Shown: positions 3,910 to 36,847 of the stretch, piece after piece
Numbering within the stretch: the stretch's first letter is position 1
Layout of the letters: each line of letters opens with the position of its first letter
IMG/VR virus record: IMGVR_UViG_3300049187_000041
Reading direction: 5' to 3' (one strand)
DNA length: 64,000 bases
Origin: a virus
Program-made: the position numbers and the translations under genes
The notes under the pieces: generated by a model
What the model was told of the DNA's origin: nothing
What the model saw: only the letters and a program-made list of their open reading frames with translations
Databases searched by the model: none

Positions 3910-4388
3910 CGCCAAAGCAGGAGGCCTTCGTCCGCGAATACCTGGTGGACCTGAACGCCACGCAGGCGGCGATCCGCGCCGGCTACAGCGAGCGGACGGC
4001 GAAGCAGATCTCGCACACGCTGCTGGGTCGGCCCGAGGTTGCGGACGCCGTTGCCCAGGCCATGAAGGCTCGCGGCGAGCGTACGCAGATCACCGCCGAC
4101 CGTGTTCTGACGGAGATCGAGCACATGGCCATGCTGGACCCAGCCGCCCTCATCAACGTCAAGCGCCCAGCCGACATCGCCAAGCTGCCCGAGGATGTGC
4201 GGCGGGCCATCGTCGGCTGGTCGTGGGATGCCAAGGGACGATTCCAGGTGAAGCTCGCCAAGGAGGCCGCCTTGCAGATGCTGGGCCGGCATCACCGGCT
4301 GTTCAATGACAAGGTCGTCGTCGAGGTGGTCGACCGCGCCCAGGCCCTGCGCGAAGCGCGCGAGCGCGTGAATGCAGGACGCAGCTGA
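3906..4388 (+). CDS. terS: Terminase small subunit
   Basis: GTG start; TPKQEAFVREYLVDLNATQAAIRAGYS signature. Confidence 0.92.
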   Translation: MTPKQEAFVREYLVDLNATQAAIRAGYSERTAKQISHTLLGRPEVADAVAQAMKARGERTQITADRVLTEIEHMAMLDPAALINVKRPADIAKLPEDVRRAIVGWSWDAKGRFQVKLAKEAALQMLGRHHRLFNDKVVVEVVDRAQALREARERVNAGRS

Positions 4389-5863
4389 TGGACCATATCG
4401 AGAAGCAGCTGACCGAAGACATCGCCGGGTTCCAGCACGATCCGCTGGGCTTCGTGCTCTACGCGTTCCCGTGGGGCAAGGAGGGCACTGAACTGGCCAA
4501 GCACCCAGGTCCGCGCACCTGGCAGCGAGAAACGCTCGAGCTGATGGGTGAGAAGCTGCGCGACGGCGCAACCGTGGAGGATGCGATCCAGATCGCGACC
4601 GCGTCTGGCCACGGCATCGGCAAGTCGGCGCTGGTTTCGATGGTGATCCTGTGGGCGCTGGCCACGCGGGAGGACACGCGCGGCGTGGTCACGGCCAACA
4701 CCGAGAAGCAGCTGGTCTCTAAGACTTGGCCGGAGCTGGCCAAGTGGCACCGCATGTCGGTCATCCGGCACTGGTTCACCTTCACGGCCACAGCGCTCTA
4801 CAGCACGCAGGGCGACCACGAGAAGACCTGGCGTGTCGATGCGATCGCCTGGAGCCTGACCAACACCGAGGCGTTCGCCGGCCTGCACAACGAAGGCAAG
4901 CGCGTGCTGCTGATCTTCGACGAGGCATCGGCTATCCCTGACGAGATTTGGGAGGTGTCCGAGGGCGCGCTGACCGACGCCGACACCGAGATCCTGTGGC
5001 TGGCGTTCGGCAACCCCACACGGAACACCGGTCGGTTCAAGGAGTGCTTTGGCAAGCGCCGCCACCGCTGGGCGCATCGCCAGATCGACAGTCGCACCGT
5101 CGAGGGCACCAACAAGGCCCAGCTCGAGAAGTGGGTTGAGGACTACGGCGAGGACAGCGACTTCGTGCGCATTCGCGTGCGCGGCATCTTCCCGCGGGCC
5201 GGTGTGAGCCAGCTGATCGGGACCGACCTTGTTGAGGACGCGCAGAAGCGCAAGGCTGACGGCATCGACCCTGGCGCGCCGTTCATCCTCGGCTGCGACA
5301 TCGCCCGCTTCGGCGACGACCAGAACGTCGTGCGCGGGCGCCAGGGCCGGACCACGCGAGGCATGCGACCCGAGAAGTGGCGCGGCATGGACACGGTCTA
5401 CACGGCCAACCGCATCGCCACCATCATCGACCGCACGAACCCAGACGCCGTGTTCATCGACGGTGGCGGCATTGGCGGCGCGGTGGTTGACATCCTCAAG
5501 AGCCGCAACTACCGGGTCATCGAGGTCAACTTCGGCGGCAAGGCCAAGAACGAGCAGGACTTCTACAACAAGGCCGCCGAGATGTACCAGGCCATCAAAG
5601 ACTGGCTGCCCACGGCGCAGCTGGACGACGACTCCGAACTGGCCGACGACCTTACGGCGCGCGAGTACGGCTTCGACAAGGACGGCCGCCTGCAGTTAGA
5701 GAAGAAGGAAGACATGAAGAAGCGCGGCCTGCCCAGCCCTGACGATGGTGACGCGCTCGCGCTGACCTTCGCCGAGCCGGTCCAGCGCAAGGACACGCGC
5801 ACTAGCCGGCAGCCGCTGGGCCGCACACGCGTGGCAGCGACGGACTACAACCCGCTGGGCTAG
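4388..5863 (+). CDS. terL: Terminase large subunit
   Basis: Walker A SGHGIGKS, Walker B LIFDEAS, GNP motif, nuclease GCDIARFGDD and SPDDGDALALTF. Confidence 0.95.
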   Translation: MDHIEKQLTEDIAGFQHDPLGFVLYAFPWGKEGTELAKHPGPRTWQRETLELMGEKLRDGATVEDAIQIATASGHGIGKSALVSMVILWALATREDTRGVVTANTEKQLVSKTWPELAKWHRMSVIRHWFTFTATALYSTQGDHEKTWRVDAIAWSLTNTEAFAGLHNEGKRVLLIFDEASAIPDEIWEVSEGALTDADTEILWLAFGNPTRNTGRFKECFGKRRHRWAHRQIDSRTVEGTNKAQLEKWVEDYGEDSDFVRIRVRGIFPRAGVSQLIGTDLVEDAQKRKADGIDPGAPFILGCDIARFGDDQNVVRGRQGRTTRGMRPEKWRGMDTVYTANRIATIIDRTNPDAVFIDGGGIGGAVVDILKSRNYRVIEVNFGGKAKNEQDFYNKAAEMYQAIKDWLPTAQLDDDSELADDLTAREYGFDKDGRLQLEKKEDMKKRGLPSPDDGDALALTFAEPVQRKDTRTSRQPLGRTRVAATDYNPLG

Positions 5864-5898
5864 GGAAAAACGTTCGCCCACCCGGGCAGGACATTGCC
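5861..5898 (+). promoter_or_regulatory. Phage 1 late-promoter motif, copy 1
   Basis: TAGGGAAAAACGTTCGCC-N11-GACATTGCC. Confidence 0.75.
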
Positions 5899-7793: not shown

Positions 7794-8105
7794 ATGGGCT
7801 GGAACGAAGCATTCGAGCGCGTCCGCGCGCGCCTGCGCAATCGGGCGTGGTGCTACCGAGCGCTGTTCAGGACGCCTGGCGGTGAGCTGACGCCGGCCGC
7901 CGAGACGGTCATGAAGGATCTGGCGAACTACTGCTACGCCAGCCGGTCCACCCTCAAGGTTTCGCAGGTCACGCAGGCAAGCGATCCGCTTGCGATGGCC
8001 TTCGCGGAAGGGCGGCGCGATGTGTTCAACCGCATCTGCGCCATGTGCAACCTCAGCGCCGACCAGATCGACCGGATCGCGCAACACAGGACGAACGACG
8101 AATGA
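7794..8105 (+). CDS. Bbp19-like small head protein
   Basis: AFAEGRRDV motif; follows portal. Confidence 0.75.
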   Translation: MGWNEAFERVRARLRNRAWCYRALFRTPGGELTPAAETVMKDLANYCYASRSTLKVSQVTQASDPLAMAFAEGRRDVFNRICAMCNLSADQIDRIAQHRTNDE

Positions 8106-8983
8106 ACACCCGATTCCGCTTTCACAAGCGTTACCCCCTCATGAACGAAGCTGACGCCGGTGGCGGCGGTGGCGGCGCACCAACCCCGCCTGGCGCTCCC
8201 ACGCCGCCGGCCCCGCCCGCACCGGGCCCGCTGGCATGGCTGGGCGAGAGCCCCGATGCCGAACTGCTGGGCCACGCCCAGAACGCCGGCTGGAAGTCGC
8301 CGCTCGACGCCGTGCAGGGACACCGCAACCTGGAGAAGCTGCTTGGCGCCGACCGCGCCGGCCGCACCATCGTGCTGCCCAAGGACGACGCCACGCCGGC
8401 CGAGTGGTCGGACTTCTACTCGAAGCTCGGCCGCCCGGGCACGCCCGACGACTACAAGCTGCCGGTGCCGCAGGGCGGCGATCCGGCCTTCGCCAAGGCT
8501 GCGGCCGGGTGGATGCATGAAGCTGGCATCCCCCTCAAGGCGGGGCAGGCGCTGGCCGCCAAGATGAACGAGCACGCTGCAGCGCAGGCGGCCGCCGAAC
8601 AGCAGGCGATCACGGCCGCGCTTGACGCGGAGCAGTCCGGGCTGAAGCGTGATTGGGGCGGCGAGTACGACATGCGCAAGGAGCTGGCCCGCCGCGCCGC
8701 CGTGGGCCTCGGCCTGGACGAGTCGAGCATCGAGACCCTGGAAACCGCCGTGGGCTTCTCCAAGGTCATGAAGGCCCTGGCCAAGGCAGGCGACCTAATG
8801 CGCGAGCACGGCGCCGAGGGCATGGGCGAGATGGGCAGCTTCGGCATGACACCCGAGGGCGCCAAGGCCCGCCGCACGCAGCTGATGGCCGACAAGGACT
8901 GGCGCACCAAGGCCATGGTGGCCAACAGCGCCGAGTGGGCGGAGCTGCAGAAGCTCGACCGCATCGTGGCCGGCGTGAAGTAG
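8102..8983 (+). CDS. Capsid scaffolding protein
   Basis: Pro/Gly N-terminus, LGRP..PDDY, L..DWG..YD; upstream of capsid gene. Confidence 0.8.
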   Translation: MNTRFRFHKRYPLMNEADAGGGGGGAPTPPGAPTPPAPPAPGPLAWLGESPDAELLGHAQNAGWKSPLDAVQGHRNLEKLLGADRAGRTIVLPKDDATPAEWSDFYSKLGRPGTPDDYKLPVPQGGDPAFAKAAAGWMHEAGIPLKAGQALAAKMNEHAAAQAAAEQQAITAALDAEQSGLKRDWGGEYDMRKELARRAAVGLGLDESSIETLETAVGFSKVMKALAKAGDLMREHGAEGMGEMGSFGMTPEGAKARRTQLMADKDWRTKAMVANSAEWAELQKLDRIVAGVK

Positions 8984-9018
8984 GGAAAAACGTTCGCCCC
9001 CCGGCCGCCGACATTGCC
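8981..9018 (+). promoter_or_regulatory. Phage 1 late-promoter motif, copy 2
   Basis: TAGGGAAAAACGTTCGCC-N11-GACATTGCC, fixed parts identical to copy 1. Confidence 0.75.
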
Positions 9019-11159: not shown

Positions 11160-12482
11160 ATGCCGCAGACCTACACACCTATCGCAGGCTTGCGCAAGAA
11201 GATCGACGCGACCAGTGGCGCCATTCTCGACATCGTCGATCAGAACGGCGATTCCCTAGGCTTGGTGTCAGGGGCTGGGCTTTCCAAGCTGGTGGGCGAC
11301 CAGGTTGCGGCTTCGAGCGGCACGCCGACCAGCGCCGTAGGTGCGGCCGGCAGCCTGACAGGCGCCTACTACTACACCGTCACCTTCGTCACGGCGCAGG
11401 GTGAAACCGCCCCCTGGCCCGGCACGGCAACGGTCGTCAATCCGTCGTCGCAGCAGGTCAACCTCACCTCCATCCCCATCGGCCCGGCCGGCACGACGGC
11501 ACGCCGCATCTATCGCACGCCCGCCACTCCGACCGATCCGAAGGACTACCGCTTCCTGGTCGAGATCAGCGACAACACGACGACTACTTACACCGACAAC
11601 ACCGCAGACGGCTCGCTTGGCAGCCCGGCGAACTGGAACGCGACCAACCGTGGCGTCGTCACGGACGGCTCCGTCCCGCTTCTGCGCGCCAGCGACCAGA
11701 GCACCGGCGTTGGCTACCAAGCGTTCAACAACAACGTCGGCTATGCCTCCACTGCGGTGGGCTACCAGTCGCTGTACTCCTGCACAACCGGCCGCCGAAA
11801 TGTTGCCGTCGGCACCTATTCGCTCACGACGCTGACAACCGGCTATGAAAACGTCGGCGCGGGTACGCATGCCGGCCAATCCATCACGACGGGCATCCAG
11901 AACACGCTCCTCGGCTATAGCGCCGGCTTCAATGTCACGACGCAGGGCGGCAACACCTTCGTCGGCAACTCGTCCGGGTCGAACGCGGGCCTGGGCGGCA
12001 CGTCGCAGTTCAACACGGCGCTGGGTCGCGATTCGCTTCGCGGCACAGCCAGCGGCTTGGGCCAGCTCAACGTGGGCATCGGCTACTTCGCGCTGCGCGA
12101 CATCAACACCGCCGACCAGTGCGCGGCGCTCGGGCCGTATGCCGGCCGCTATGCCAATGCCAGCCGGCAGCTGTTCGTCGACACAGGCGGCGACCGCACC
12201 AACATCGCCAATTGCCAAAACATCGGCCTGATCTACGGCAAGGGCGAGACGACCGCGGCGGCTCAGGTCCTGCACCTCAATGCCCAGGTTCGCATCGGCG
12301 CGGGTGACGCGCCGGTCGTTGCCGGACTGCCGGCCGCTGCCTCTGGCTACAAGGGGTATCGCGGATACGTCACTGACGCCACCGTGGCCTACACGTCGGC
12401 AAACGTCGGCAGCACCGTCGCCGGTGGCGGCTCCAACACCGTGCCGGTGTTCTGCAACGGCACCAACTGGGTGATCGGCTGA
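11160..12482 (+). CDS. Head-fibre-like protein: short anchor + FN3-like domain + beta-roll (TAVGYQSL-type) repeats
   Basis: Repeats STAVGYQSL / NVAVGTYSL / NVGAGTHAG / NTLLGYSAG / NTALGRDSL; C-terminal CNGTNW. Confidence 0.65.
   Translation: MPQTYTPIAGLRKKIDATSGAILDIVDQNGDSLGLVSGAGLSKLVGDQVAASSGTPTSAVGAAGSLTGAYYYTVTFVTAQGETAPWPGTATVVNPSSQQVNLTSIPIGPAGTTARRIYRTPATPTDPKDYRFLVEISDNTTTTYTDNTADGSLGSPANWNATNRGVVTDGSVPLLRASDQSTGVGYQAFNNNVGYASTAVGYQSLYSCTTGRRNVAVGTYSLTTLTTGYENVGAGTHAGQSITTGIQNTLLGYSAGFNVTTQGGNTFVGNSSGSNAGLGGTSQFNTALGRDSLRGTASGLGQLNVGIGYFALRDINTADQCAALGPYAGRYANASRQLFVDTGGDRTNIANCQNIGLIYGKGETTAAAQVLHLNAQVRIGAGDAPVVAGLPAAASGYKGYRGYVTDATVAYTSANVGSTVAGGGSNTVPVFCNGTNWVIG
11261..11280 (+). 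other. Left cassette-junction motif (LVSG), phage 1
   Basis: CTTGGTGTCAGGGG identical to 53383-53396. Confidence 0.6.
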
Positions 12483-12489
12483 CGCCGAA

Positions 12490-12507
12490 TTTCAAGCCCC
12501 TGCCGGT
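12490..12507 (+). other. Right cassette-junction motif, phage 1
   Basis: CAAGCCCCTGCCGGT (12493-12507) identical to 54824-54838; intergenic. Confidence 0.6.
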
Positions 12508-12516
12508 ATCCATCAA

Positions 12517-18628: not shown

Positions 18629-20442
18629 TGCCCTACTACGTCGACACCTCTCCCGCCGTCCTCGCCGGCCGCGGCGAGCTGCAGCCCTCGGCGCGACTGT
18701 CCTTCGCTGGCGCCGTCGGTTCAGCCGTCACAGGCAACGCCTCGTCGGTCATCGCCGACTACGCCGAGTTGCAGCAAGCCAACCAGGGGCCGCGTCTCAC
18801 GCAGGACGCGGCGAACCAGCTTTTCAAGGACGCCGGGGTCAAGCACTCGGCGCCGGCGGACGGCTACACGCAGTCGGCGGTGGACGTCATCGTCAAGCGC
18901 CAGCGCAACCAGATGCTCGCCCGCGAGATCGACGCGGCAACGCCTTACTCGTGGCTCGGCACGCCGGTGCGCGGAGGCGCGATGCTGCTTGCTGGACTGG
19001 CCGACCCGCTAAACGTGGCCTCGGCCTTCATGCCGGTGGTGCGCGAGGCGCGCGTGGCCAGCATACTCGCCAACGCCGGAGAGTCGGCGCTGGCCAGGGC
19101 TGGCGCGCGGGCAGCCATTGGCGCCGCCGAGGGCTTCGCGGGCGCCGCGGCGCTGGAGTTGCCGACCTACGGCCTGCGCACAGCCATGCAGGACGACTAC
19201 CACCTGACAGACAGCCTGTTGAACATGGCATTCGGCACGGCGCTGGGCGGTGGGCTGCATGCGGTCGGTGGCGCCATCGGCGACCACCTGGGCGGCGGCA
19301 ACCCGTACAGCCGGTTCGCAGGCCTGGGCACCAAGGAAATCCGCCAGGTGCTGGACTACGAGGCCGGCAAGCTCACGGACGCCTCGGGCTTCTCAGATCT
19401 GCAGCGCCGCGCTGCGGGGCTGGGCCAGCGCGACACCGTGCCGGTGGCTGTGGCTGAGCAGCGCGTGCTGCAGCCGGCAGAGCGCCAGCGGCTGGCGGTT
19501 GTCAGCGAAGCCCCCTTCGCGCGGCTGTACGACATGACGCCCGAGGCGGCCACTGCCCGGGCGAGCGACGGCCTACGCGAGACCTTCAGGGCCGAACTGC
19601 TGGCCGAAGCCGGGCAGCGCGCAGAACCGCGCGTCATCGCCGAGACCCGCACGCAGCTGGCGCAGATCGAGCAGCGGCTGAAGACGCTGCAGGGTGACGG
19701 CGACTTCAAGCGCCTGGCCAAGGAGTTCCAGGGCCAGGGCCAGTCGCGCAAGCAGGCCGAGGCCAGCGCCCGCAAGCAACTGGGTGAAGAGGCCGCAGAC
19801 CTCACGGCCACGCGCGATCGGCTGCAGGCTACTGTCGACGCCAACGCCAAGGCCTCCCAGGCCGAGCAGCAACTGGCCGCGCTGGACCGCGGCGAGACGC
19901 CGGAGCGCTTCGCCGAGCGTGTCGCCGAGGAAGCTGGACGCATCCGTGGCGCTGCCGACATCGCGCGCGCCATCACAGGCGCCGACGAGCCGCCGGCCGC
20001 ATTCGTCATCGGCATGGCCCAGCCAGAGACCCGCGAGGCTGCCATGCGCGCCGCGGTGGCCGACTTCGCAGCGGGCCGGCTGCCCTCTGTCGAGGCGCTG
20101 GTACGGTCCGACCCGGGCCTAATCGGCAACCGCACGACGCCGCAGGAGGTTGCGCGGGCGGCGCGTCTGCAGCGCGAGCCCGACGCTGCCTTCCTTGGCA
20201 GCCGCGAGGCATCCGAGGCTGCGGCCAGCAAGGAGCGCCGCGAGCCGCTGGAGATCGAGAAGGAGCTGGAGGCTGACCTGCAGCGACTGGACGACCTCGT
20301 GCGCAACCTCGAGGCCAACGGCATCCCGCGCGAAAGCCTGGACCGCATCGCGGGTCTGGCCGCCTTCGACGACGAGGTGAAGCGCGCCAGGGCCATCGGC
20401 GAGGTGTCGCGCATCGCCGCCATTTGTGGGATCAGGACATGA
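18628..20442 (+). CDS. Internal virion (ejection) protein
   Basis: TGATG overlap; MPYYVD start; Gly/Ala hydrophobic hairpin segment. Confidence 0.7.
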   Translation: MPYYVDTSPAVLAGRGELQPSARLSFAGAVGSAVTGNASSVIADYAELQQANQGPRLTQDAANQLFKDAGVKHSAPADGYTQSAVDVIVKRQRNQMLAREIDAATPYSWLGTPVRGGAMLLAGLADPLNVASAFMPVVREARVASILANAGESALARAGARAAIGAAEGFAGAAALELPTYGLRTAMQDDYHLTDSLLNMAFGTALGGGLHAVGGAIGDHLGGGNPYSRFAGLGTKEIRQVLDYEAGKLTDASGFSDLQRRAAGLGQRDTVPVAVAEQRVLQPAERQRLAVVSEAPFARLYDMTPEAATARASDGLRETFRAELLAEAGQRAEPRVIAETRTQLAQIEQRLKTLQGDGDFKRLAKEFQGQGQSRKQAEASARKQLGEEAADLTATRDRLQATVDANAKASQAEQQLAALDRGETPERFAERVAEEAGRIRGAADIARAITGADEPPAAFVIGMAQPETREAAMRAAVADFAAGRLPSVEALVRSDPGLIGNRTTPQEVARAARLQREPDAAFLGSREASEAAASKERREPLEIEKELEADLQRLDDLVRNLEANGIPRESLDRIAGLAAFDDEVKRARAIGEVSRIAAICGIRT

Positions 20443-22943
20443 GCGATTGTTTCGAGAAGGTCAACGCCGCCGAGGGCTCGCCGCTGTCGGCGACCGAGCT
20501 GGCGGCGCTGGAGGAGGCCATCGAGGCACGCACGCGTTACGTGATGGTCCGCGACGGCCTCAGTGAAGCAGACGCCAGGCTGAAGGCCGGCCAGGAGGTC
20601 GCCGATCAGGTCGAGATGGCCGCCTTCGTCGAGAAGCGCAATGCCGCCATGAACGCCGCCAAGCGGCTCCAGCGCGCGGGCTGGGTGCAGCAGCACTTCG
20701 GCAAGAACGTGGCGCTCGGCATCGATTCCATGCTGGTTGGCACGCAGCGCGCGAAGCAGGGCGCCCGGCTCAGCGTGGCCTCGACGCAGGAGTCGCTGAA
20801 GGCGCAGTACCTGGCCGGCTTCACGCACGACCTGGAGGCCAGCGGCCACGGCGCCCTGTTCGCCTCCGGCGCGCTGGACCGCGACGTGGCGCGCGCGCTG
20901 TACCTGATCCGCCGCGACGGCGCCGACCTGTCCAATGTGCCGTCCGAGGCCGTCGATATCGCCCGCATCGTGGCGAAGTGGCAGGAGGTCACGCGCACCG
21001 ACGCCAACCGCGCTGGCGCCTGGATCGGCCAGCGCGACGACTACATCACTCGGCAGAGCCACGTGCCCGAGAAGGTGCGCGGCGAGGGCGGTGACGCCGG
21101 CTTTCAGGCCTGGGCCGATCTGGCCCGGCGCACTTTCGACCTGCCGCAGATGATGGCGCTCAGCGGCGCCACCGACGCCGACAAGGTGCTGCGCGCGCTC
21201 TGGACGAATCTGGCCAGCGGCAACCACATGAAGGCCGTGCCAGACGACGTCGCCAGCGGTTTCAAGGGGCCGGCCAACCTGGCCAAGAAGCTGTCGCAGT
21301 CGCGCTCGGTGATCTTCAAGAGCGCGGACGACTGGTTCGACTACAACCAGGCATTCGGCGCCGGCAACCTGCGCGAGAGCGTGCTGCAGGGGCTGGAGCG
21401 AAGCGCGCAGGCCACCGGCATCATGCAGATGCTGGGAACCAACCCCACGGCCATGGTCGATGCCATTCGCAGCGACCTGACGCTTGCCGCCAAGGAGGCC
21501 GGCAACGTCGAGGCCGTCACGAAGCTGGGCGATGCCCGCGGCGCGCACGACCGCTACCTGTCGGCCGTGGACGGCTCCATGAACATCGCCGGCAATGCCA
21601 TGTGGGCCCGACGCGCGGCCAACGTGCGCAGCTGGGAGTCGCTGTCCAAGCTCGGCGGCATGCTGCTGTCCCAGCTCAACGACGTGGCCGTCTACGCCAG
21701 CGGCGCGCGCTACCAGGGCCGCGGCTTCTTCAGCGGCATGGCCGAAGCCGTCGGCGGCCTGGGCCGCAGCCTCAGCGCGCCGGAGCGCCGCGAGCTGGCC
21801 GCGTCCCTCGGCGTCGTACTCGACAACATGGCCGGCGAGCTCGGCCGCGTGGGATCGTTCGCCGAGGCGGGCTCGATGTCCCGCGTCATGGCCACCTTCA
21901 TGAAGTGGAACGGCAGCCAGTGGTGGCAGAGCCGCATGCGCACGTCGGCCGCCTTCGGCATGTCGCACCACATGGCGCTGCAGGCTGGCAAGTCCTTCGC
22001 CGAGATAGGCGGCGAGTATCAGCGCGTGCTCGGCCTCTATGGCATCGGGGAGGCCGAGTGGAGTGTCATCGCCAAGACCGCCGAGAAGCACGTCGACGGT
22101 AAGGCTTACATCGTGCCGGAGGCGCTGCGCGACGTGGACGAGGCGGTCATGCGCGGCTACGTCGGCGCCGGCGCGACCGACGGCGAGCTGGCGCGCGCGC
22201 GGCGCGACATCGAGGACAAGCTGCGCACCTACTTCGTCGACCAGACCAGCACCCTCGCGCTAGAGCCCGACGCCAAGACGCGGGCCATCGTGTTGCAGGG
22301 CACGCGGCCCGGCACCTGGACCGGCGAGTTCATGCGCTTCGCCATGCAGTTCAAGAGCTTCACTGGCGCCTACACGCAGCGCGTCCTGGGTCGCGAGGTC
22401 TACGGCCGCGGCTACGAGGGCGACAGCCTCATCGGCGCACTGCGCAACGGCAACGGTGAGTTGCAGGGCCTGGCCCGGCTGATTGCGATGTCTACGCTGA
22501 TGGGCTACGCCTCGATGTCGCTGAAGGACATTGCCAAGGGCAAGACGCCGCGCGACCCCACCGAGGACGGCCAGGCGCTGAAGGTCATGCTGGCGGCGAT
22601 GGTGCAGGGTGGGGGCGCCGGCATCTACGGCGACTTCCTGTTCGGCGCCGCCAACCGCATGGGTTCCGGCACCATCGAGAGCCTGGCCGGCCCGGTGGTC
22701 AGCAGCGCCGGCCGCATCGTCGACCTCTACCACAAGGCACTGGAAGGCGACGACGTGTCGGCCCGTGCGTTCGGCGAGGTGCTGAACAACACGCCATTCA
22801 TGAACCTCTTCTACGTCCGGCCAGTGCTGAACTACATGGTGCTGTACCAGATCCAGGACATGCTCTCGCCGGGCTACCTGCGGCGCATGCAGCGCGATGC
22901 GGAGAAGAACGGCCAGGAGTGGCTGATCGCCCCCAGCCGCTAG
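20439..22943 (+). CDS. Large internal virion (ejection) protein
   Basis: 834 aa; GTW.GE.MRF..QFKSF; C-terminal NNTPF.NLFY.R..LN typical of gp16-like proteins. Confidence 0.75.
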   Translation: MSDCFEKVNAAEGSPLSATELAALEEAIEARTRYVMVRDGLSEADARLKAGQEVADQVEMAAFVEKRNAAMNAAKRLQRAGWVQQHFGKNVALGIDSMLVGTQRAKQGARLSVASTQESLKAQYLAGFTHDLEASGHGALFASGALDRDVARALYLIRRDGADLSNVPSEAVDIARIVAKWQEVTRTDANRAGAWIGQRDDYITRQSHVPEKVRGEGGDAGFQAWADLARRTFDLPQMMALSGATDADKVLRALWTNLASGNHMKAVPDDVASGFKGPANLAKKLSQSRSVIFKSADDWFDYNQAFGAGNLRESVLQGLERSAQATGIMQMLGTNPTAMVDAIRSDLTLAAKEAGNVEAVTKLGDARGAHDRYLSAVDGSMNIAGNAMWARRAANVRSWESLSKLGGMLLSQLNDVAVYASGARYQGRGFFSGMAEAVGGLGRSLSAPERRELAASLGVVLDNMAGELGRVGSFAEAGSMSRVMATFMKWNGSQWWQSRMRTSAAFGMSHHMALQAGKSFAEIGGEYQRVLGLYGIGEAEWSVIAKTAEKHVDGKAYIVPEALRDVDEAVMRGYVGAGATDGELARARRDIEDKLRTYFVDQTSTLALEPDAKTRAIVLQGTRPGTWTGEFMRFAMQFKSFTGAYTQRVLGREVYGRGYEGDSLIGALRNGNGELQGLARLIAMSTLMGYASMSLKDIAKGKTPRDPTEDGQALKVMLAAMVQGGGAGIYGDFLFGAANRMGSGTIESLAGPVVSSAGRIVDLYHKALEGDDVSARAFGEVLNNTPFMNLFYVRPVLNYMVLYQIQDMLSPGYLRRMQRDAEKNGQEWLIAPSR

Positions 22944-23000: not shown

Positions 23001-25184
23001 ATGACCGTCGAAACCACCGTCTCCCGGGCACAGTACAACACCAACGGGACGACCGGCCCGTGGACGGTGCCGTTCTACTTCATCGAGAGCGGCGACCTGT
23101 CCCTCATCCACACCGACGCCGACGGCAACGAAACCGAACTGGTGCTGGACGTCGACTATTCGGTGACGGGTGCGGGCGATCCGACAGGCACCGTCACGAC
23201 GACCATCGCCTATCCGTCGGGCGGCACCATCACGGTATTGCGCGACGTTCAGCCGCTGCAGACCCACGACTTCACTGACGGCGACGACTTCCCGGCCGCA
23301 ACCGTCGAGATCGGGCTGGACCGTCTGACGCAGCTGGTCCAGCAGGCCCTGGAGATCGTCGGTCGCGCGCTGGTGTTCTCACCGTCTGATGCCGATGGCT
23401 CGACATTGCCGGCCGCCGCCTCTCGCGCCAACCTGCTTCTTGGCTTTGACTCTGACGGCCGGGTCAGTTTGGTCGCGCCTGTCAGCGGCAGCGCCGCCGC
23501 CCTCGCCCTCGACCTCGCCAACACCGCCAGCGCCACCAAGGGCCCGGCGCTTGTCGGATTCGCATACGCCATGGCATACGCCAGCGGCACCGTTGGCTAC
23601 GCGCTCAAGCAGCACCGCATCGACGTGCGGCTGCTGGGCGTGGACAACACCGGCGCGACGGATTGCAGCACCGCCCTGGCGGCGGCTCTGGCGCTCGGCA
23701 TCCCGCTGGCCATGCGCGGCACCTTCAAGCTGCTGTCCAAGGTCACATACACCGGCGCCGTGGACATCCTCGGCGAGGATTGCACGATCAACAGCGACGT
23801 GACGTGTTTCGAGATCACGGACGGTGACGGCAGCCGCATCCGCAATCTCAACCTGATGCCGATCACGACGCCTTACACGCTGCTGCGCAACACGACGACC
23901 TGGGTCAACGTGGCCGGCGATGTGGTGCAGTCGCTGGAGGGCTATCAGCCATCTGCGCTCGACACCGACATTTGGGCGTCTCTCTCTGGCGCCATCCAGA
24001 ACCAGAGCGCGAACAAGACCATCAACCCCGGCATCATCTTCAAGAGCAGCACGGGCCTGACGGCGCGCCGTGATGTGCAGATCAGCGGCATCACAGGCCG
24101 GGCTGTGCTGATCCAGCTGGAGGGCTACAGCGACTCCGAGGTGTCGGGCTGCGACTTCGGCGCCGGCCCGCGCGAAGGCATCAACTTCCTGAACGGCCAG
24201 ACGCTGGCGCGCGGCGCTCGCAACCGCATCATCAACAACCGCGTCCGTTACGCCAGCCAGTGCGGCATCCTGTGGTGGGCGCAGGACGAACTGGAGTGCT
24301 ACGGCAATGACTCCAGGCTCAACGGCGAGAGCAACTACAAGTCCTACCAGTACGACGGCACCAACACGACCGACGTCATCAGCAAGCGGTGCCGGATCTT
24401 CGGCAACCACTCGCAGGACGCGTTCTACGACGGCTTCGACCTGCAGAGCTACTACAACGTCGCCGACCCGGGCGTCTACACGGCCAACCAGTGCTACGGC
24501 AACACGTCACGCAACTGCCGCCACACCACCTTCACGATCAACGGCGAGGGCGACACGATGTCGCTCAACTACGCCGAGCGCTCGGGATCGCACGGCATCA
24601 GCGTCAAGTCCAAGCGCGCCACGGTGACGGGCAATTCCACGAAGGACTGCTGTGCCTTCCCGGCTGTGCACGCGTTTCAGATCTTCGACATGCTCGTCCA
24701 GGGCGACGGCATCAACAGCAGCAGCAACAACATCGCGAACGCCACTGCTGCCTACACGTACAACTATCTGCACTCCGGCGTGACAGGCGCGGACCCGACG
24801 ACCGGGGACGAGGGTTTCGACTTCGGCAACCGCTGCTCGGGAGGCCCTGATCGAATCACGGTCTCCAAGAACATCCCGACGTATCTCATCACGTCGGTGG
24901 TCAAGAGCATCACAGCCGCCACCTACACGGTGGCCGGCACGGACGCGGCACTGTCCTTCTTCACCTCAGCGACATGTACCGTCACGCTGCCGAGCCCGGC
25001 TGCCTACCCGGGGCGTGTGCTGAGCTTCCGCAATACCGCCGCCTTCGCCATCAACTCCGCAAGCGCCAACGTCTCGCCCATCGGCGGCGGGGCGCTGTCA
25101 GCGTCCATCTTGGCGGCCACTGTCGGCAAGTGGTGCGAGCTGCAAAGCGACGGCACCAACTGGCTAATCATGTCGAGCAACTGA
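23001..25184 (+). CDS. Tailspike/tail fibre with parallel beta-helix (putative depolymerase)
   Basis: T7 gp17-like N-terminal anchor (VPFYF...DL...LDRLT.L.QQ); GVDNTGATDCS beta-helix cap; Asn-ladder repeats. Confidence 0.8.
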   Translation: MTVETTVSRAQYNTNGTTGPWTVPFYFIESGDLSLIHTDADGNETELVLDVDYSVTGAGDPTGTVTTTIAYPSGGTITVLRDVQPLQTHDFTDGDDFPAATVEIGLDRLTQLVQQALEIVGRALVFSPSDADGSTLPAAASRANLLLGFDSDGRVSLVAPVSGSAAALALDLANTASATKGPALVGFAYAMAYASGTVGYALKQHRIDVRLLGVDNTGATDCSTALAAALALGIPLAMRGTFKLLSKVTYTGAVDILGEDCTINSDVTCFEITDGDGSRIRNLNLMPITTPYTLLRNTTTWVNVAGDVVQSLEGYQPSALDTDIWASLSGAIQNQSANKTINPGIIFKSSTGLTARRDVQISGITGRAVLIQLEGYSDSEVSGCDFGAGPREGINFLNGQTLARGARNRIINNRVRYASQCGILWWAQDELECYGNDSRLNGESNYKSYQYDGTNTTDVISKRCRIFGNHSQDAFYDGFDLQSYYNVADPGVYTANQCYGNTSRNCRHTTFTINGEGDTMSLNYAERSGSHGISVKSKRATVTGNSTKDCCAFPAVHAFQIFDMLVQGDGINSSSNNIANATAAYTYNYLHSGVTGADPTTGDEGFDFGNRCSGGPDRITVSKNIPTYLITSVVKSITAATYTVAGTDAALSFFTSATCTVTLPSPAAYPGRVLSFRNTAAFAINSASANVSPIGGGALSASILAATVGKWCELQSDGTNWLIMSSN

Positions 25185-26532: not shown

Positions 26533-26816
26533 ACTGCGCGCGCTGCGGCGGCGCGCATCGGCTGAGCCGGTGCCCGTGGCCCCGTTTGCGGAACGCGTCG
26601 CGGAACAAACGCGGAACACATGCAATTCAGTTTCGTCTGGTGCCCGGGGCCGGACTCGAACCGGCACACCTTGCGGCGGGGGATTTTGAGTCCCATGGCC
26701 CGCGCCGACTTTCGTCAATGGGCATCGGCACAGGGGCAGCAAAGTGTTCCGCGTCTGAACCGAGATCGTTCAGGGCTAGCGCAAAGAAAGCGGAACGCCT
26801 CAGCGCACCGGCTTGA
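26529..26816 (+). CDS. Zn-knuckle-like ORF reading through the att site
   Basis: GTGA overlap; CARCGGAHRLSRC; C-terminal part may be non-functional read-through. Confidence 0.3.
   Translation: MNCARCGGAHRLSRCPWPRLRNASRNKRGTHAIQFRLVPGAGLEPAHLAAGDFESHGPRRLSSMGIGTGAAKCSASEPRSFRASAKKAERLSAPA
26588..26617 (+). repeat. Integrase arm-type repeats (left of core)
   Basis: GCGGAAC at 26588, 26600, 26611. Confidence 0.7.
26638..26694 (-). pseudogene. 3' fragment of tRNA-Leu(CAA) = att core duplication
   Basis: Minus strand GGGA-CTCAAAA-TCCCC, long variable arm, CCGGTTCGAGTCCGG T-arm, CCCGGGC-A-CCA; 5' half (D-arm, 5' acceptor strand) absent. Confidence 0.92.
26746..26796. repeat. Integrase arm-type repeats (right of core)
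   Basis: GTTCCGC (inverted) at 26746 and GCGGAAC at 26790. Confidence 0.6.
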
Positions 26817-27834
26817 GCTTGGTCGCGCGGGTACGGTAATGCCGCCGCGTGAGGGCAACGCTGCCGTGCTGCAGTAGGGTCGCAGCCTCCTCGTCCGTCT
26901 CGACCAGATCGCCGGCCATCTTGCGCATGTCGCGCAGGTACATGGCTCGGATGCCGCGGAGAAGCTCGTCATCGTTCGCCAGCCCGGCCTTCACCGCCGC
27001 CCGTTGGCGCGCCTCGTCCCAGCGGTCACGCAGCATGCGCTGCGACACCGGCCGGCCGTCGGGCGTGGACAGCAGCATGAGGTGGTCAGCCCGCAGCGCT
27101 CGGCGCCGCTCGATCAGGTCGGGCAGCACCGCCGACAGGCTCAGGTCGAAGTCGGCCTTCTTGCCGGTCTTGCTCGCCTTCAGGCGCAGCAGGTCGCCGG
27201 CCGGCAGCAGCACCTGGCGGGCGTCGGTCAGGCGCATGCCGGTGGCGCTGCTGATGTCCATGCAGTCGCGCAGCACCTGGTCGCCCTCGGCGTAGACGGC
27301 GGCGAACAACTCGGGCGTGACCTCGAACTCGCGGGGCTGCTCCTCGTTCTTCCAGCGGCTGCGCTCCATGCCGGCAGCCGGCCAGGGCAGGCGGGTCATC
27401 CCCTCCATGCGCGCCCAATTCCAGATGATCGACAGCAGGGACATCTCGCGGTTGCCCTGCGTCTTCGCCGTGCGCGCCCGCAGATAGGCCTTCAGCGCCG
27501 GCAGGTCGATCTGATCCCATGTGGCCTCGCCGAACACCGGTCGCAGCTGGCGCAGGTTCTTCGTGTATCCGCGCTTCGTCTCGGCGCTGGTGTAGCTGGG
27601 CAGCCCGCGCTCTTTGTCGGTCTCCCAGCCGGAAAACGCCTCTTCCAGCGTGCCGGCTATGCGCGGCGCACGGTTGTAAAGCTCGTCCCACTTCTTCAGC
27701 GCCTCGTCGAAGTCGGTGCCCAGCGGCACGTCCGGCTTCCCCTCTGGCCGCATGTCGTAAAAGTAATACGTCACGACGCGCCCGCTCTTGCGCTTGCGCG
27801 AGTGGTGCCGCAGCCGTGGGTGCTGGCCAGTCAT
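26800..27834 (-). CDS. int: Tyrosine integrase 1
   Basis: ATGMRLTD, K, RDMRK, LLQH, TRRHYR; start MTGQHP by ATGA overlap with xis; adjacent to att. Confidence 0.92.
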   Translation of the reverse strand: MTGQHPRLRHHSRKRKSGRVVTYYFYDMRPEGKPDVPLGTDFDEALKKWDELYNRAPRIAGTLEEAFSGWETDKERGLPSYTSAETKRGYTKNLRQLRPVFGEATWDQIDLPALKAYLRARTAKTQGNREMSLLSIIWNWARMEGMTRLPWPAAGMERSRWKNEEQPREFEVTPELFAAVYAEGDQVLRDCMDISSATGMRLTDARQVLLPAGDLLRLKASKTGKKADFDLSLSAVLPDLIERRRALRADHLMLLSTPDGRPVSQRMLRDRWDEARQRAAVKAGLANDDELLRGIRAMYLRDMRKMAGDLVETDEEAATLLQHGSVALTRRHYRTRATKLKPVR

Positions 27835-28055
27835 TTCACCAGGGCGAGGTTGATGCCGCGCGATGGTGCCACGGGCCTGCCGGACAGCCACTCGCGGCAG
27901 TGGAAGCGCGACACCAGCAGGCGGTTGCCTCGGCGCTTGGCCGGCAGGCCCTGGCGCTTCAGCTCGGCCTCCTGGTCGTCAGGCTTCGCGCAGCCGGTCA
28001 GGTCTTTGACCTCGGCCGCCGACAGGAATTCGCTGTCTAAGGTGGCGGTGCTCAT
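27831..28055 (-). CDS. xis: DUF4224-family excisionase-like protein 1
   Basis: FLSAAEVKDLTG..KP..Q...L...G; C-terminal INLALV. Confidence 0.8.
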   Translation of the reverse strand: MSTATLDSEFLSAAEVKDLTGCAKPDDQEAELKRQGLPAKRRGNRLLVSRFHCREWLSGRPVAPSRGINLALVK

Positions 28056-29913: not shown

Positions 29914-30972
29914 TCAGGCCCCAATCTGGCGGCTGTTCGACACAGCCGTCTCACGCCACCGGGCTTTGACGTAGATCTCGGTGGTCGTCTTGTCTTTGTG
30001 CCCGCACAGCAACTGCACGAGCTCGAGCGGTCTGCCTTCGCGGTAGACCAGGTCCGTGGCTCCCTTGCCCTTCAGGTCGTAGAAGCCCCAGGTCGGCATG
30101 CCGGGGATGTCCTTGCGCACCTTGGCTTGCACGCGCCGGAAGATGGCGCACAGGCCGTCGTAGGTGTACGCCTCGCCCTTCAGGGTGTGCAGCCACGGCT
30201 GGCTGATGCTGGGCACCTCGCCCTGCAGCTCGCGGATCACGGCGTCGAGGCCGGCGTCGATCGCGATGTCGACGACCGTGCCGGTCTTGCCCTGGTCGTT
30301 GCGCAGCACGCGCTGGCCGTCCTTGTGGACGATGTTCCACGGGCCCCAGCCGAGGATGTCATCGGGGCGCTGCAACGTGCGGTAGACCAGCGCCATCATG
30401 CCGCGCACCGACTTAGGCGATGCGTCGTAGACGGCCCGGTACCAGGCATCCTCGACGTACACCTCGCGCTTCGTCTCGCGGTTGCGCTTGACGCCGGACT
30501 GCCGCATGCAGGGGTTGACCTTGATGCCGCAGTTCTCGTCGGTGCGGATCAGCCACGACAGGCACGCCGACAGGCAGGCCCGCTCGCGGTTGGCCCGCAC
30601 GGCGCGATTGAGCTCGGCGCCCAGGTCGAGGTAGTCCTGCACCGCCTTGCTCGTCACCTGGGCCGGCGTGAGCTTGCCGAAATACTTCTTCAGCGGCTCG
30701 CTGTCGCGCTTGTAGTCGTCGCGCGTGCGCTCGGCCAGTCCCTTCGCGGCGACGCGCTTGTCGCAGTGCGCGAGGAACAGGTCGAGGTAGTAGGACATCG
30801 TGCCGAAGCTGCTGCCCGGGTCGTTGTAGACCTTGGCCCTGCGCTTGGCTTCCTCGACATCGGTGCCGAGGTGTTCCCACTCGCCGGACTTGTGGACGTA
30901 GTAGAACGCCCCGTGGTGGGCGTAGACCCGGGCCGGCAGGCCGAGCGGGTTGTGCTTGCGTGGGCGGGCCAT
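29914..30972 (-). CDS. int: Tyrosine integrase 2
   Basis: LPARVY.HHGAFYY N-terminal arm-binding domain; QRPDD, K, FYDLKGK, LCGH, TEIY. Confidence 0.92.
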   Translation of the reverse strand: MARPRKHNPLGLPARVYAHHGAFYYVHKSGEWEHLGTDVEEAKRRAKVYNDPGSSFGTMSYYLDLFLAHCDKRVAAKGLAERTRDDYKRDSEPLKKYFGKLTPAQVTSKAVQDYLDLGAELNRAVRANRERACLSACLSWLIRTDENCGIKVNPCMRQSGVKRNRETKREVYVEDAWYRAVYDASPKSVRGMMALVYRTLQRPDDILGWGPWNIVHKDGQRVLRNDQGKTGTVVDIAIDAGLDAVIRELQGEVPSISQPWLHTLKGEAYTYDGLCAIFRRVQAKVRKDIPGMPTWGFYDLKGKGATDLVYREGRPLELVQLLCGHKDKTTTEIYVKARWRETAVSNSRQIGA

Positions 30973-34506: not shown

Positions 34507-34721
34507 GGCAGAACCTCGAAGTCGTCGGTTATCGGGCAGACGTGCTCGACGCCGGGCTTGCTGCTGAACAGCACCCACCGGCCGCCCTGCTGGCGCCAGC
34601 GCACGTCGGTCGAGCCGCAGCGGTTGCAGCGTGGCATGCGCCCCGGGTACGGGTTGCGCTCGTCGTCCTCGTCGTTCAGGCTGTCCCACGCGTCGGCCTC
34701 GTGGTTGAAGATGTCGCTCAT
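34503..34721 (-). CDS. Small Zn-finger protein
   Basis: CNRC...HVC; ATGA overlap with pol. Confidence 0.65.
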   Translation of the reverse strand: MSDIFNHEADAWDSLNDEDDERNPYPGRMPRCNRCGSTDVRWRQQGGRWVLFSSKPGVEHVCPITDDFEVLP

Positions 34722-36847
34722 TTCCGATACCTCTTCGCTTCAAAGCCTTCGGCGGCCAGCGGCATGCCGGCCGCCCACGGTGGCGCGGCGCACAGCAGCG
34801 CGGCCAGGCGTTCGCTGGTGAACTCGTCGGTGTCCGGCGCTTCGCAGACCACCTCGTCGTGCACGGTGGTCACGATCTCGAAGCCGGCGGCCTCGATCAG
34901 CGGCATGTTGTGCGCCATCACGTCACGCGCCACGGCCTGGCACACGTTCTCGAACAGCTTGCCGCCGTAGGTCTTCAGGCGCTGCCACTTCCGGCTGTAC
35001 TGGTTGATCCCCATGTAGGTGATCTCGCCGCCGTCGCCGACCTGTGGGTGCGGGTAGCACAGCGCGCGGCCCGAGGGCAGCACCAGGCGCAGCCAGGCGC
35101 CATCGCGGCGCACCTTGAGCTTGCCGCACACCAGCGTGACGCCGGGCGCGTTGATGGCCTCGCGCACGGTCTCGGCGAGCTGCTTCCAGTAGGCCGCGAT
35201 GTTGCCGTGGCCGCGCCGCCAGCCGCGTTTGAGCGCGTCGCAGGTCACGAACGCCTGGTCGGACAGCCCGAACGTCGAGCGCTTCTGATCGCGGGACCAT
35301 TGCAGGAAGCCCTGCGCCTCTTCGCGCAGATCGGCGGGCAGGGTGGGGTAGGCCGTGGCGCCCAGTGCTTCGAGGTCGACGCTGTAGGCGAGGGCGAACG
35401 TCACCCACGCGCCGACGCCGCCCTCGTACCCGAAGGCCAGCTCCTGCACCTTGCCGATCTGTCGCTGATCCTTCGTGACCTTGTCGACGGGTACGCCGAA
35501 CGACTTGCCGTAGGCGTATTTGTAGAGGTCGGGCCCGGTGCCGGCGTCGTACTCGCGGAAGGCCTGCAGCTTCCACTGCTCGCCGGCCAGCCAGGCCTGG
35601 TCGCGGCCCTCGATGTTCGACAGGTCGGCGCACACCAGCTTCTTGCCGGGCGGCGCGACGATCGCGCCGCGGATGGCCGACACGCAGACGTGCATGACGT
35701 TGTCGAACAGCAGGTGCTCGCAGTCCGCGAGCATCGCCTCGATGCCGAAGTCGATCTCGTCCTGCGGCAGCAGGCCGCGCGATGGCAAGTTCTGTGGCTG
35801 GAAGAGGCGGCCCGCCCACCGGCCGGTGCGCGAGGCGCCGGCGAACTGCAGCGTGCCGCGCAGCCGGCCGTCGCTGCTGGTGCCGCGCAGCAGCGTGTTG
35901 TACTTCGCGACGCTGGTGCTGCTGGCCTGCAGTCGGTTCTGCAGCAGTTCCTTCACCGCCCATGGCAGGGCCGGGTCTTCGATGCGGCGCTCAAGCGTCG
36001 ACATCTGCATGTCGGGCAGATCGACGCCGTACTCGGCGAGCAGGTGCTTCAGCAGCGCGTCGCGCTGGGTGGTCGCCTGCAGCTCGCCGTCGGTCAGCTC
36101 CTGGGCGCGCTCGGCCAGTGCAGCCTTCGCGCGGTCAGCGGCACGGATGGCCGCGTCGACGAGGCCCATGTCGATGCACATGCCGCGCTGGTTGATCGCC
36201 TGGTCGAGGTGCCAGAGCTCGAGCTCGCGGCCCTGGTAGTTCCACGCCGGCATGCGCTTGACGTTGGCCCGCATCGCGTGGATGTCGCCGCCGGCGTAGC
36301 GCACGAACTCGGCCCACTCGGCGGGGTGCGTCTCGCGCGTGGCGCGCCGCAGCTTCTGGTTCTCGGGCCGCGGCATGCAGAACAGCCGCACCAGGTCTTT
36401 GCCCTCGCGCTTGCGCTCGCTGTCGAGCGTCTGCAGCACCTCGCCCTGCTTCTCGAGGGCGCCCGGCAGGCTGTGCGCCAGGCCGCGGGCCATCGTGCAG
36501 CGCCAGCGCTTGATGTCACGAGCTGCGGCACGCTCGACCGTGCTGCCGGCGTGTAGGAGCACGGTGCGGTCGAAGCCGGCGTTGTGCGCAACACACTCGA
36601 CGTTAGGGTCGGTGAGCGCTCTGAACAGATCGTCGGGCATCGTGGGCGACGGCTCGGTCACGAACTCGTCGAGCAGTGGCTCCCAGTGGCCGACCGTGTC
36701 GCCGAGGACATCCCACACTTTGACGGGGCCGTCTTCGTCGATCGCATAGGCCCACAGCAGGATGTGAGCCGATTCCGCGTAGCGCCACGTGCCGTCACGC
36801 AGTGGCGTCTCGCAATAGGTCTCGAGGTCGAGGTAGAGACGGCTCAC
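34718..36847 (-). CDS. polA: Family A DNA polymerase (APSE/BPP-1 type)
   Basis: Exo LYLDLETY; motif A CADLSNIEGR; motif B RQIGKVQELAFGY (Leu at the 762-equivalent position, usual in temperate phages); motif C TVHDE. Confidence 0.95.
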   Translation of the reverse strand: MSRLYLDLETYCETPLRDGTWRYAESAHILLWAYAIDEDGPVKVWDVLGDTVGHWEPLLDEFVTEPSPTMPDDLFRALTDPNVECVAHNAGFDRTVLLHAGSTVERAAARDIKRWRCTMARGLAHSLPGALEKQGEVLQTLDSERKREGKDLVRLFCMPRPENQKLRRATRETHPAEWAEFVRYAGGDIHAMRANVKRMPAWNYQGRELELWHLDQAINQRGMCIDMGLVDAAIRAADRAKAALAERAQELTDGELQATTQRDALLKHLLAEYGVDLPDMQMSTLERRIEDPALPWAVKELLQNRLQASSTSVAKYNTLLRGTSSDGRLRGTLQFAGASRTGRWAGRLFQPQNLPSRGLLPQDEIDFGIEAMLADCEHLLFDNVMHVCVSAIRGAIVAPPGKKLVCADLSNIEGRDQAWLAGEQWKLQAFREYDAGTGPDLYKYAYGKSFGVPVDKVTKDQRQIGKVQELAFGYEGGVGAWVTFALAYSVDLEALGATAYPTLPADLREEAQGFLQWSRDQKRSTFGLSDQAFVTCDALKRGWRRGHGNIAAYWKQLAETVREAINAPGVTLVCGKLKVRRDGAWLRLVLPSGRALCYPHPQVGDGGEITYMGINQYSRKWQRLKTYGGKLFENVCQAVARDVMAHNMPLIEAAGFEIVTTVHDEVVCEAPDTDEFTSERLAALLCAAPPWAAGMPLAAEGFEAKRYRK

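Follow-up and report, generated by a model that had tools for sequence, protein, structure and literature searches.

Two cassette genes in a pair of tandem prophages

The window analyzed in this study, namely the whole 64,000-nucleotide (nt) stretch of viral DNA in the IMG/VR record IMGVR_UViG_3300049187_000041, has a guanine-cytosine (GC) content of 67.6% and consists of two prophages in tandem. The first (phage 1) resembles Burkholderia phage BcepC6B; its structural genes lie on the + strand and extend to about 26 kb, and its integrase gene is at 26800..27891(-). The second (phage 2) resembles Bordetella phage BPP-1; its integrase gene is at 29914..30972(-), its replication module is encoded on the - strand, and its structural genes begin at about 43 kb. 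Between its head genes and the gene for a phrog_394 "tail protein A," each phage carries a gene in which a short N-terminal anchor is joined to a cargo bracketed by two short junction motifs, and these two cassette genes and their motifs are the subject of this report. No such gene is present in BPP-1 or BcepC6B.

The cassette gene of phage 1 (11160..12482, + strand) encodes a putative accessory virion protein of 440 amino acids (P0001), in which a backbone-specific N-terminal anchor is followed in frame by an exchangeable, fibre-like cargo, as judged from the open reading frame (ORF) and its translation, PHROG matches, and tblastn searches. P0001 has no Pfam match; its PHROG matches, which are weak, are to tail spike and virion structural proteins, and its middle region gave tblastn matches to distant tail-fibre proteins. 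A preliminary description of the window, made from the sequence alone, had read this cargo as FN3-like plus beta-roll repeats, a reading to which the empty Pfam search lends no support; the name "head fibre" given there is likewise unproven, the signs of a virion protein being the gene position between the head genes and tail protein A and the weak PHROG matches. A model of P0001 made with AlphaFold2 from the single sequence, with no alignment, had a predicted local distance difference test (pLDDT) score of 33 and was unusable. The cassette gene of phage 2 (53288..54820, + strand) encodes a putative accessory virion protein of 510 amino acids (P0002; ORF translation and Pfam), composed of a phage-2-type anchor and an SGNH/GDSL esterase cassette; the cargo matches the SGNH/GDSL hydrolase family PF13472 with an E value of 3.8e-11, in agreement with the earlier assignment. 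Since phage 1 has a T7-like main fibre at 23001..25184, the products of the cassette genes are considered to be accessory virion proteins, and they look like those of the receptor-binding or depolymerase type. The phage-1 gene starts 3 nt past the upstream stop codon; the phage-2 gene has its own ribosome-binding site (GAAGGA) and is directly preceded by a strong intrinsic-terminator-like hairpin with a T-run at 53242-53277.

In phage 1, the anchor module (11160..11260, + strand) spans about 34 residues (..AGLRKKID..DIVDQNG..), and the same N-terminus is found on unrelated cargo in the contig loci L004, L083 (P0005), and L084 (P0006) and, more distantly, in L089-L091. The phage-2-type anchor module (53288..53382, + strand) has about 32 residues and recurs, at 92.8% DNA identity, in L195 and L244, where it carries the phage-1 cargo. 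While the two N-termini had been described as related over about 35 residues, this relation is weak; they gave no BLASTP match, fall into separate anchor clusters, and have essentially nothing but the junction in common. Around the cassette genes, furthermore, almost no DNA can be aligned between phage 1 and phage 2, as the preliminary description had also noted.

The two junction motifs

The left 14-mer CTTGGTGTCAGGGG is present at 11261-11274 and at 53383-53396 and is read in frame as Leu-Val-Ser-Gly in both genes; the right 15-mer CAAGCCCCTGCCGGT is present at 12493-12507 and at 54824-54838, in non-coding DNA 10 nt and 3 nt past the respective stop codons. Both pairs of identical words are thus as first reported. 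On the + strand, the left junction motif of phage 1 extends to CTTGGTGTCAGGGGCTGGG (11261..11279; L V S G A G) and forms the 5' boundary of the cassette, and that of phage 2 extends to CTTGGTGTCAGGGGGTGGGA (53383..53402; L V S G G G), through which the homology between phage 2 and L195 runs and at which it ends. The right boundary motif of phage 1 (12490..12507, + strand) is the non-coding TTTCAAGCCCCTGCCGGT, where identity with L155 ends, and that of phage 2 (54818..54842, + strand), including the stop codon, is TGATTCCAAGCCCCTGCCGGTGCAC, with 22 nt identical to L094; a near-identical copy in L091 lies 3' of an unrelated polysaccharide-lyase gene and 5' of unrelated genes. The exchangeable cassette of phage 1, made of left motif, cargo, and right motif, accordingly spans 11261..12507 (+ strand), as delimited by identity to L195 and L155, with which the cluster members P0018, P0021, and P0023 concur.

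Across loci, the left consensus is (CAAGCC)YTGGTGTCAGGGGCTGGGAAT, translated as ..(Q)(A)LVSGAG.., and the right consensus is TGA-T(T)CC-CA[T/A/G][C/G]-CCCTGCCGGT[G/A], which is non-coding, starts at the stop codon, and has sharp edges on both sides. The distance from the stop codon to the right motif is 0-13 nt, and 4-13 nt in most of the left-motif loci that have a right motif. Both motifs are kept in contigs of differing flank composition, GC-rich as well as AT-rich.

The codons of the left motif are rare in these phages, as had been claimed: TTG makes up 5.8% of Leu codons, TCA 2.5-4.3% of Ser codons (1 of 34 in the phage-1 gene), and GGG 8-11% of Gly codons. Constancy of these codons was also seen in the comparison of synonymous positions that the preliminary description had proposed; namely, in loci found through the right motif only, six of eight [LVIM]V[ST]GAG sites are encoded as GTG-TCA/ACA-GGG-GCT, in contrast to a conserved Gly within the anchor, for which four different codons are in use.

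When reverse-complemented, the right motif matches the left core CAGGGGCT; the motifs thus form an imperfect inverted repeat, with 11/14 positions matching in phage 2 and 10/14 in phage 1, a relation already noticed in the window and now found at many other loci. The inverted core CAGGGGCT.GGAAT occurs at both ends, with 11-14 of 18 positions matching in most loci and 13/14 in L003, and the 14-nt left core and the reverse-complemented right motif differ by no more than two mismatches in about 20 loci. In very diverse phages, each arm is conserved to its own consensus, and the tetranucleotide GGTG is common across loci, in direct orientation, directly outside both arms. Long-range RNA pairing of the arms was considered and rejected; many right arms read CATCCCCTG while the left arm remains CAGGGGCTG, and as there is no covariation, the pairing is not maintained. 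An RNA or promoter role had been raised beforehand as an alternative, and none was detected: the local hairpins of the two motifs do not exceed those of shuffled sequences in stability, neither motif has a promoter-like or terminator-like site, and scans of the window returned no Rfam family and no tRNA. With the Rfam and tRNA scans empty, the right motif has no support as a tRNA 3'-end or an attachment-site remnant.

The motifs might nonetheless be conserved for a function of their own, LVSGAG being a required structural linker and the right motif an expression signal of the downstream gene (for example, a translation re-initiation or leader element), with swapping being incidental. This would be consistent with the tail B proteins of both phages, which also end in ..QALVS.G, with the peptide preceding the junction, which is often (S/T)xxEVxxxQALVSGAG, and with the next gene starting 5-15 nt past the right motif in several loci, where no Shine-Dalgarno sequence is obvious by eye. 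A constraint on the protein, however, does not explain the invariant rare codons; the genes downstream of the right motif and their distances from it are highly variable, and in some loci a terminator comes next. Given also the absence of a promoter, terminator, Rfam family, or stable local fold and the coincidence of the breakpoints described below with the motifs, we regard this explanation as improbable.

Near-copies of the left motif form the ends of the tail protein B genes of both phages (15296-15326 and 57736-57757): CAGGCCTTGGTGTCGGAGGGTCGGTGA, translated as ..QALVSEGR*, and GTGGTGTCAGGCGGCTGA, translated as ..DVVSGG*, the latter with TCA, one of the rare codons. Either a structural peptide that both proteins share or latent sites able to accept cassettes could account for these near-copies. 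Also, translation of the right motif in its third frame gives (F/S)KPLPV, which is similar to the TFKPL with which some anchors begin.

Recurrence of the motifs in uncultivated phages

Shared words of this length are common in the GC-rich window, in which 66 maximal 14-mers and 27 15-mers are shared at distances of more than 3 kb, and the significance of the motifs therefore comes from their position and from comparative data, not from k-mer identity. IMG/VR was scanned with the exact left pattern TGGTGTCAGGGGCTNGG, and a right core was scored when the exact CCCCTGCCGGT lay 0.3-5 kb downstream. This left pattern was found at 70 loci, 60 of which are in frame with a long ORF after the motif and 30 of which are followed by the right core; for a shuffled pattern of equal composition, there were 22 matches, none in frame and none with the right core. 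A scan by the exact 15-mer gave many chance matches, among which at least 15 loci have the extended context, namely a stop codon, TT(T)C, the 15-mer, and G(CAC), with diverse genes on both sides; several loci found by the right motif alone also have the left motif 1.3-2.0 kb upstream. The database search suggested in the preliminary description hence finds the pair in dozens of IMG/VR contigs with diverse cargo, and in related phages with swapped cargo the motifs are present and the cargo is variable at LVSG. The number of long-range shared 14-mers and 15-mers in the window would by itself allow for chance identity, or for ordinary recent homology of two related phages, but dozens of independent contigs contain both motifs in collinear arrangement, which was not the case for the shuffled control, and no other DNA around the genes is alignable between the two phages; on these comparisons, such an explanation is already refuted, and we consider its probability negligible.

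Anchors form 33 clusters of 16-130 residues and are extremely diverse, and nearly all of them end in ..(Q/K)(A/S)LVSGAG. The cargo falls into 43 clusters. Six cargo clusters are found on at least two anchor clusters, and 11 anchor clusters carry at least two cargo clusters, with three on the phage-1 anchor. Cargo types include GDSL/SGNH esterases, polysaccharide deacetylases, and GH28-like and BNR proteins, which fit receptor-binding enzymes, as well as tail-fibre-like repeats, and many cargos have no Pfam match. The phage-1 anchor family, as collected by protein and profile searches with the N-terminus, is small; about 30 N-terminal residues are common to its members and are followed by unrelated cargo, which includes a 739-residue protein without a Pfam match, two esterases of the SGNH type, and several short proteins with separate enzyme genes behind them.

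Two to four genes can lie between the motifs (L003 2023-3973, L083 4001-5889, L091 4001-6337, L100, and L224), and such multi-gene cassettes consist of a short anchor-fused protein and then separate enzyme genes. The last 54 residues of P0001 are found again at the end of a separate gene in L083, the product of which has 174 residues. A second left motif lies 3.6-5.3 kb off in L100, L219, L224, and L269, and two or three right motifs follow one another in L140, L155, and L181; with such repetition, one genome may have several positions for cassettes, or small extra cassettes may be present.

Outside these contigs, the named phage genomes of INPHARED contain no right motif beyond chance matches. 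With the anchor as the query, a scan of genome contigs returned a single false positive, a chorismate-mutase-like protein, and a scan of metagenomes returned no additional contig; an N-terminal word search with the phage-2 anchor returned the query's own cluster only. The peptide LVSGAG was not found in the literature in a phage context.

Breakpoints of cassette exchange

The cassette of phage 1 was found almost unchanged in foreign backbones. Its match in L195 extends over 1258 nt at 99.68% identity, from 11261 to 12518, about 11 nt past the 15-mer, and the flanks of L195 are 92.8% identical to phage 2, not to phage 1. In L155, the cassette is 98.7% identical over 1248 nt, from 11261 to exactly 12507, on a third anchor and between unrelated flanks. 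When the pairing of anchor and cargo was cross-checked on protein clusters at 90% identity, the phage-1 cargo was found on three anchors (with P0018, P0021, and P0023 in the cluster), and so was the SGNH cargo of phage 2 (the two others being P0029 and P0033).

The converse is seen in near-identical backbones. L100 and L246 are 99.7% identical up to position +19 of the left motif, have unrelated cargo, and are 100% identical again from the right core; in the pairs L100/L215, L243/L259, L216/L236, and L140/L265, upstream homology ends at +16 to +26 of the left motif. Between phage 1 and its close relatives, homology ends at 11210-11274 and is back at 12368-12516. Breakpoints at the motifs, both in pairs with a shared cassette and in pairs with a shared backbone, therefore indicate that the cassette is the unit of exchange and that the motifs are its limits. 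As judged from these alignments, cassette swapping between unrelated phages at the motifs is strongly supported, and what is shown is a recent and repeated replacement of cassettes bounded by the motifs. L195, in particular, looks like the product of an exchange between phages such as the two in the window, in which the two potential "parents" stand side by side.

Not every locus follows this pattern. Homology between phage 1 and L083 ends at 11274 and is back at 12368, a breakpoint within the cargo, and L004 and L083 keep the left motif with a degenerate right motif. Also, the cargo alleles P0032, P0033, and P0002 are mosaic, which shows that ordinary homologous recombination acts at these loci.

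A non-autonomous, transposon-like element could be imagined, with the terminal inverted repeats CAGGGGCTGGGAAT ... ATTCCCAGCCCCTG, a target duplication of GGTG, and a transposase encoded elsewhere, inasmuch as the ends are inverted and GGTG lies on each outer side. However, GGTG lies 1 nt from the repeat on one side and 2 nt on the other, the "target" is in every case the same in-frame junction, replacement rather than insertion at empty sites is seen between near-identical backbones, and no transposase is found among the neighbor genes; such an element thus appears very improbable.

Mechanism of exchange

Cassettes are probably exchanged through homology, by a double crossover or gene conversion in which the motifs are the only homology common to different backbones, and this we propose with modest confidence. 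The homology model is favored because conserved flanking motifs have a precedent in coliphages (PMC10408124), cargo alleles are mosaic, a breakpoint lies within the cargo, and no recombinase is linked to the cassettes; the PD-(D/E)XK nuclease (DUF2800) and Enc34-type single-stranded DNA-binding protein of phage 2 are likewise in keeping with general recombination. In this model, each gene would encode an accessory virion protein, of either the receptor-binding or the surface-polysaccharide-enzyme type, with two parts: a short, backbone-specific anchor and an exchangeable cassette. The cassette would contain one to four genes, and its first gene, lacking a start codon, would be read in frame from the anchor. 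Exchange would occur between co-resident or co-infecting phages, for example the two tandem prophages of the window, by general recombination, through host RecA or through single-strand-annealing or exonuclease functions of the phage, with the motifs acting as adapters, namely portable homology arms of 14-26 bp. The near-invariance of the adapters, rare codons included, would be maintained because each successful swap passes through and copies them, and fast re-assortment of receptor or enzyme specificity is the likely outcome.

Several observations weigh against this mechanism. At 14-26 nt on the left and 11-18 nt on the right, the shared arms are short for RecA-type recombination to be efficient, and plain homology explains neither the inverted-repeat relation of the adapters nor the common GGTG outside both arms. 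Furthermore, the right adapter is nearly invariant in non-coding DNA whatever gene follows, be it a tail A, lysis, or connector-like gene.

A dedicated, site-specific exchange of cassettes, in which the adapters are the binding and crossover sites of a recombinase provided in trans by the host or a phage, is the main alternative and is held to be possible but doubtful. It would resemble integron attC x attI recombination, the Acinetobacter dif modules with XerCD, and laboratory recombinase-mediated cassette exchange, and an excised circle would join the ends as inverted arms of about 14 bp around a spacer of about 6-7 bp with GGTG between. Such a mechanism would account for inverted arms conserved across very diverse phages, GGTG in direct orientation outside each arm, sharp breakpoints inside the motifs, a right site that is invariant in non-coding DNA notwithstanding its neighbors, and the retention of the motifs in GC-rich and AT-rich contigs alike; dif modules, moreover, are analogous cassettes without a linked recombinase (PMC6449649, PMC13141974). 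Among the 55 loci, however, no gene family is common to more than nine, and none of these families is a recombinase. The two tyrosine integrases of the window lie 15-24 kb from the cassettes, and the predicted joint CCCCTGCCGGTGTCAGGGG had no match in IMG/VR, where assembled contigs are not expected to contain circles. The degenerate right motif in L004 and L083 and the breakpoints within cargo also speak against dedicated sites, and to our knowledge the adapter arms bear no resemblance to the attC or dif consensus sequences, which counts against them as well. The preliminary description had proposed dedicated recombination sites for in-frame, C-terminal cassettes; the exchangeable cassettes bracketed by motifs are borne out, whereas the dedicated sites are called into question by the lack of a linked recombinase and by the degenerate right motifs and intra-cargo breakpoints at some loci. 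We consider only tentatively that the adapters might be true recombination sites of a cassette-exchange platform across unrelated phages, with a recombinase in trans from host or phage; that this platform would correspond, in nature, to recombinase-mediated cassette exchange, in the manner of integrons or dif modules, and would bring in-frame receptor-binding or enzyme cargo to many virion anchors, is put forward with equal reserve. In sum of the two mechanisms, a dedicated site-specific one is not shown, and homology-driven exchange is the more likely.

Relation to known systems

A close precedent is found in lytic coliphages (Kagunavirus, Kuttervirus, Gamaleyavirus, and others), in which conserved DNA motifs flank the receptor-binding domain of tailspike genes and have been proposed to be recombination hotspots (PMC10408124). 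The motifs of both systems are kept in genera that are not related to one another and enclose receptor-binding domains that can be exchanged, and the two features of a conserved non-coding motif directly 3' of the gene and of homology breakpoints at the motifs are found here as well. The coliphage motifs average 63-81% identity, whereas those described here are shorter, almost invariant, and of other sequences; unlike the coliphage type, the downstream motif is not terminator-like, with no terminator-like site and no stable fold (PMC10408124). Inverted repetition between the motifs, about 33 unrelated anchors, and exact breakpoints at 99-100% identity further set the present loci apart.

Fibre and adhesin genes of T-even phages also have short conserved motifs between interchangeable specificity segments, with a glycine-rich junction as in the present genes. 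Recombination at conserved motifs in the T-even gp37/gp38 locus was reportedly described by Tetart et al. in 1996. In gp38, conserved glycine-rich motifs separate hypervariable segments that are easily interchanged, and swaps of adhesin domains have been obtained in phage crosses (PMC3157838). The T-even motifs are coding, structural, and internal to one protein family in one phage group, unlike the present case, in which one of the adapters lies in non-coding DNA and the exchange involves whole enzyme cassettes of 1-4 genes on unrelated backbones.

Receptor-binding proteins of podoviruses are composed of an anchor and an exchangeable domain, and a "conserved docking peptide" of secondary receptor-binding proteins is known in Klebsiella phages (PMC6872550, PMC13352976). 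In the loci studied here, similarly, a short conserved N-terminal peptide is combined with unrelated depolymerase or esterase domains in a protein that, in phage 1, would be an accessory receptor-binding protein next to a main T7-like fibre; one anchor is found on unrelated C-terminal domains, and these are of receptor-binding or surface-glycan enzyme types, as in modular receptor-binding proteins. That literature concerns the modularity of proteins and not universal nucleotide adapters.

With integron attC/attI sites and with Acinetobacter dif modules bearing inverted XerC/D sites (PMC6449649, PMC13141974), the cassettes share discrete cargo, short conserved inverted sites, no linked recombinase, and the presence of the same module in different backbones; they differ in that the cargo is fused in frame to a host gene and no recombinase is identified. 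Mu G/Gin, P1 C/Cin, and shufflons likewise have inverted repeats at the junction of constant and variable parts of a fibre gene, but at the present loci there is no second cargo in opposite orientation and no nearby invertase, and the variation is replacement between genomes, not inversion. An invertible segment of the Mu G type was rejected: in-frame antisense frames from the right motif are short, at 4-207 residues, and mostly have a lower GC content at third codon positions than the sense cargo, no invertase gene is adjacent to the segment, and no alternative inverted cargo was found there.

What is already known, therefore, is the anchor with an exchangeable enzyme domain, which is standard for podovirus receptor-binding proteins, the flanking motifs in coliphages, and the glycine-rich motifs in T-even adhesins; what is new is the specific and nearly invariant adapter pair, its inverted-repeat relation, its use with dozens of unrelated anchors in uncultivated phages, and breakpoints at base level with 99-100% identity. 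The host range of phages is set largely by receptor-binding proteins, and their rapid trading among unrelated phages is only partly understood. Here, a pair of adapters of about 20 bp marks the exact limits of exchangeable cassettes across more than 30 unrelated anchors and more than 40 cargo types in dozens of uncultivated phages, and adapter-bounded swapping is a likely route for rapid change of host recognition. With near-identical cassettes caught in different backbones, the adapters are also a clear example from nature of the "linker" sequences that modular theories of phage evolution predict. The mechanism is directly testable as general recombination versus a dedicated recombinase; the adapters, furthermore, provide a design rule by which receptor-binding modules could be exchanged, plug-and-play, in phage-host systems of the laboratory, and a simple sequence tag to find receptor-binding and depolymerase genes in metagenomes.

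Other features of the window

The two integrase genes (26800-27891 and 29914-30972, both on the - strand) are separated by 2 kb and lie at the prophage-prophage junction; one product matches PHROG integrase families and the other the Pfam family Phage_integrase. This pair at the junction indicates that the phages are tandem lysogens, a setting that favors exchange between phage 1 and phage 2. The longest exact matches within the window (27, 21, and 18 nt) are in the two terminase genes (4610-5700 versus 46755-47850), and the capsid proteins are of different families (PF19821 versus PF20911).

On the 3' side of the cassettes, the backbones continue with the phrog_394 genes for tail protein A, an adaptor-like protein: that of phage 1 (12517..13119, + strand; PHROG E value of 2.1e-52) aligns with BPP-1 Bbp14 and BcepC6B gp11, and that of phage 2 (54861..55451, + strand; PHROG E value of 1.4e-48) has a DNA match to BPP-1 bbp14. 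Phage 2 also encodes a PD-(D/E)XK nuclease (DUF2800; 38141..39409) and an Enc34-type single-stranded DNA-binding protein (37575..38129), and a NUMOD4 and HNH endonuclease gene of the homing-endonuclease type (36844-37437, - strand) lies between the latter and the phage-2 DNA polymerase gene (34718..36847).

Finally, a repeat, (GC)TAGGGAAAAACGTTCGCC(C), occurs at 5859-5878, 8981-8999, and 22939-22958, beginning at the TAG stop codon of three phage-1 genes, namely those for the terminase (4388..5863), a protease-like protein (8045..8983), and a structural protein (20424..22943). At 15-20 nt past the TAGGGAAAAACGTTCGCC repeat, there is a looser motif, ..GAC(A/C)(A)TGCC..; the repeat could be a phage-specific regulatory or promoter element anchored at stop codons.

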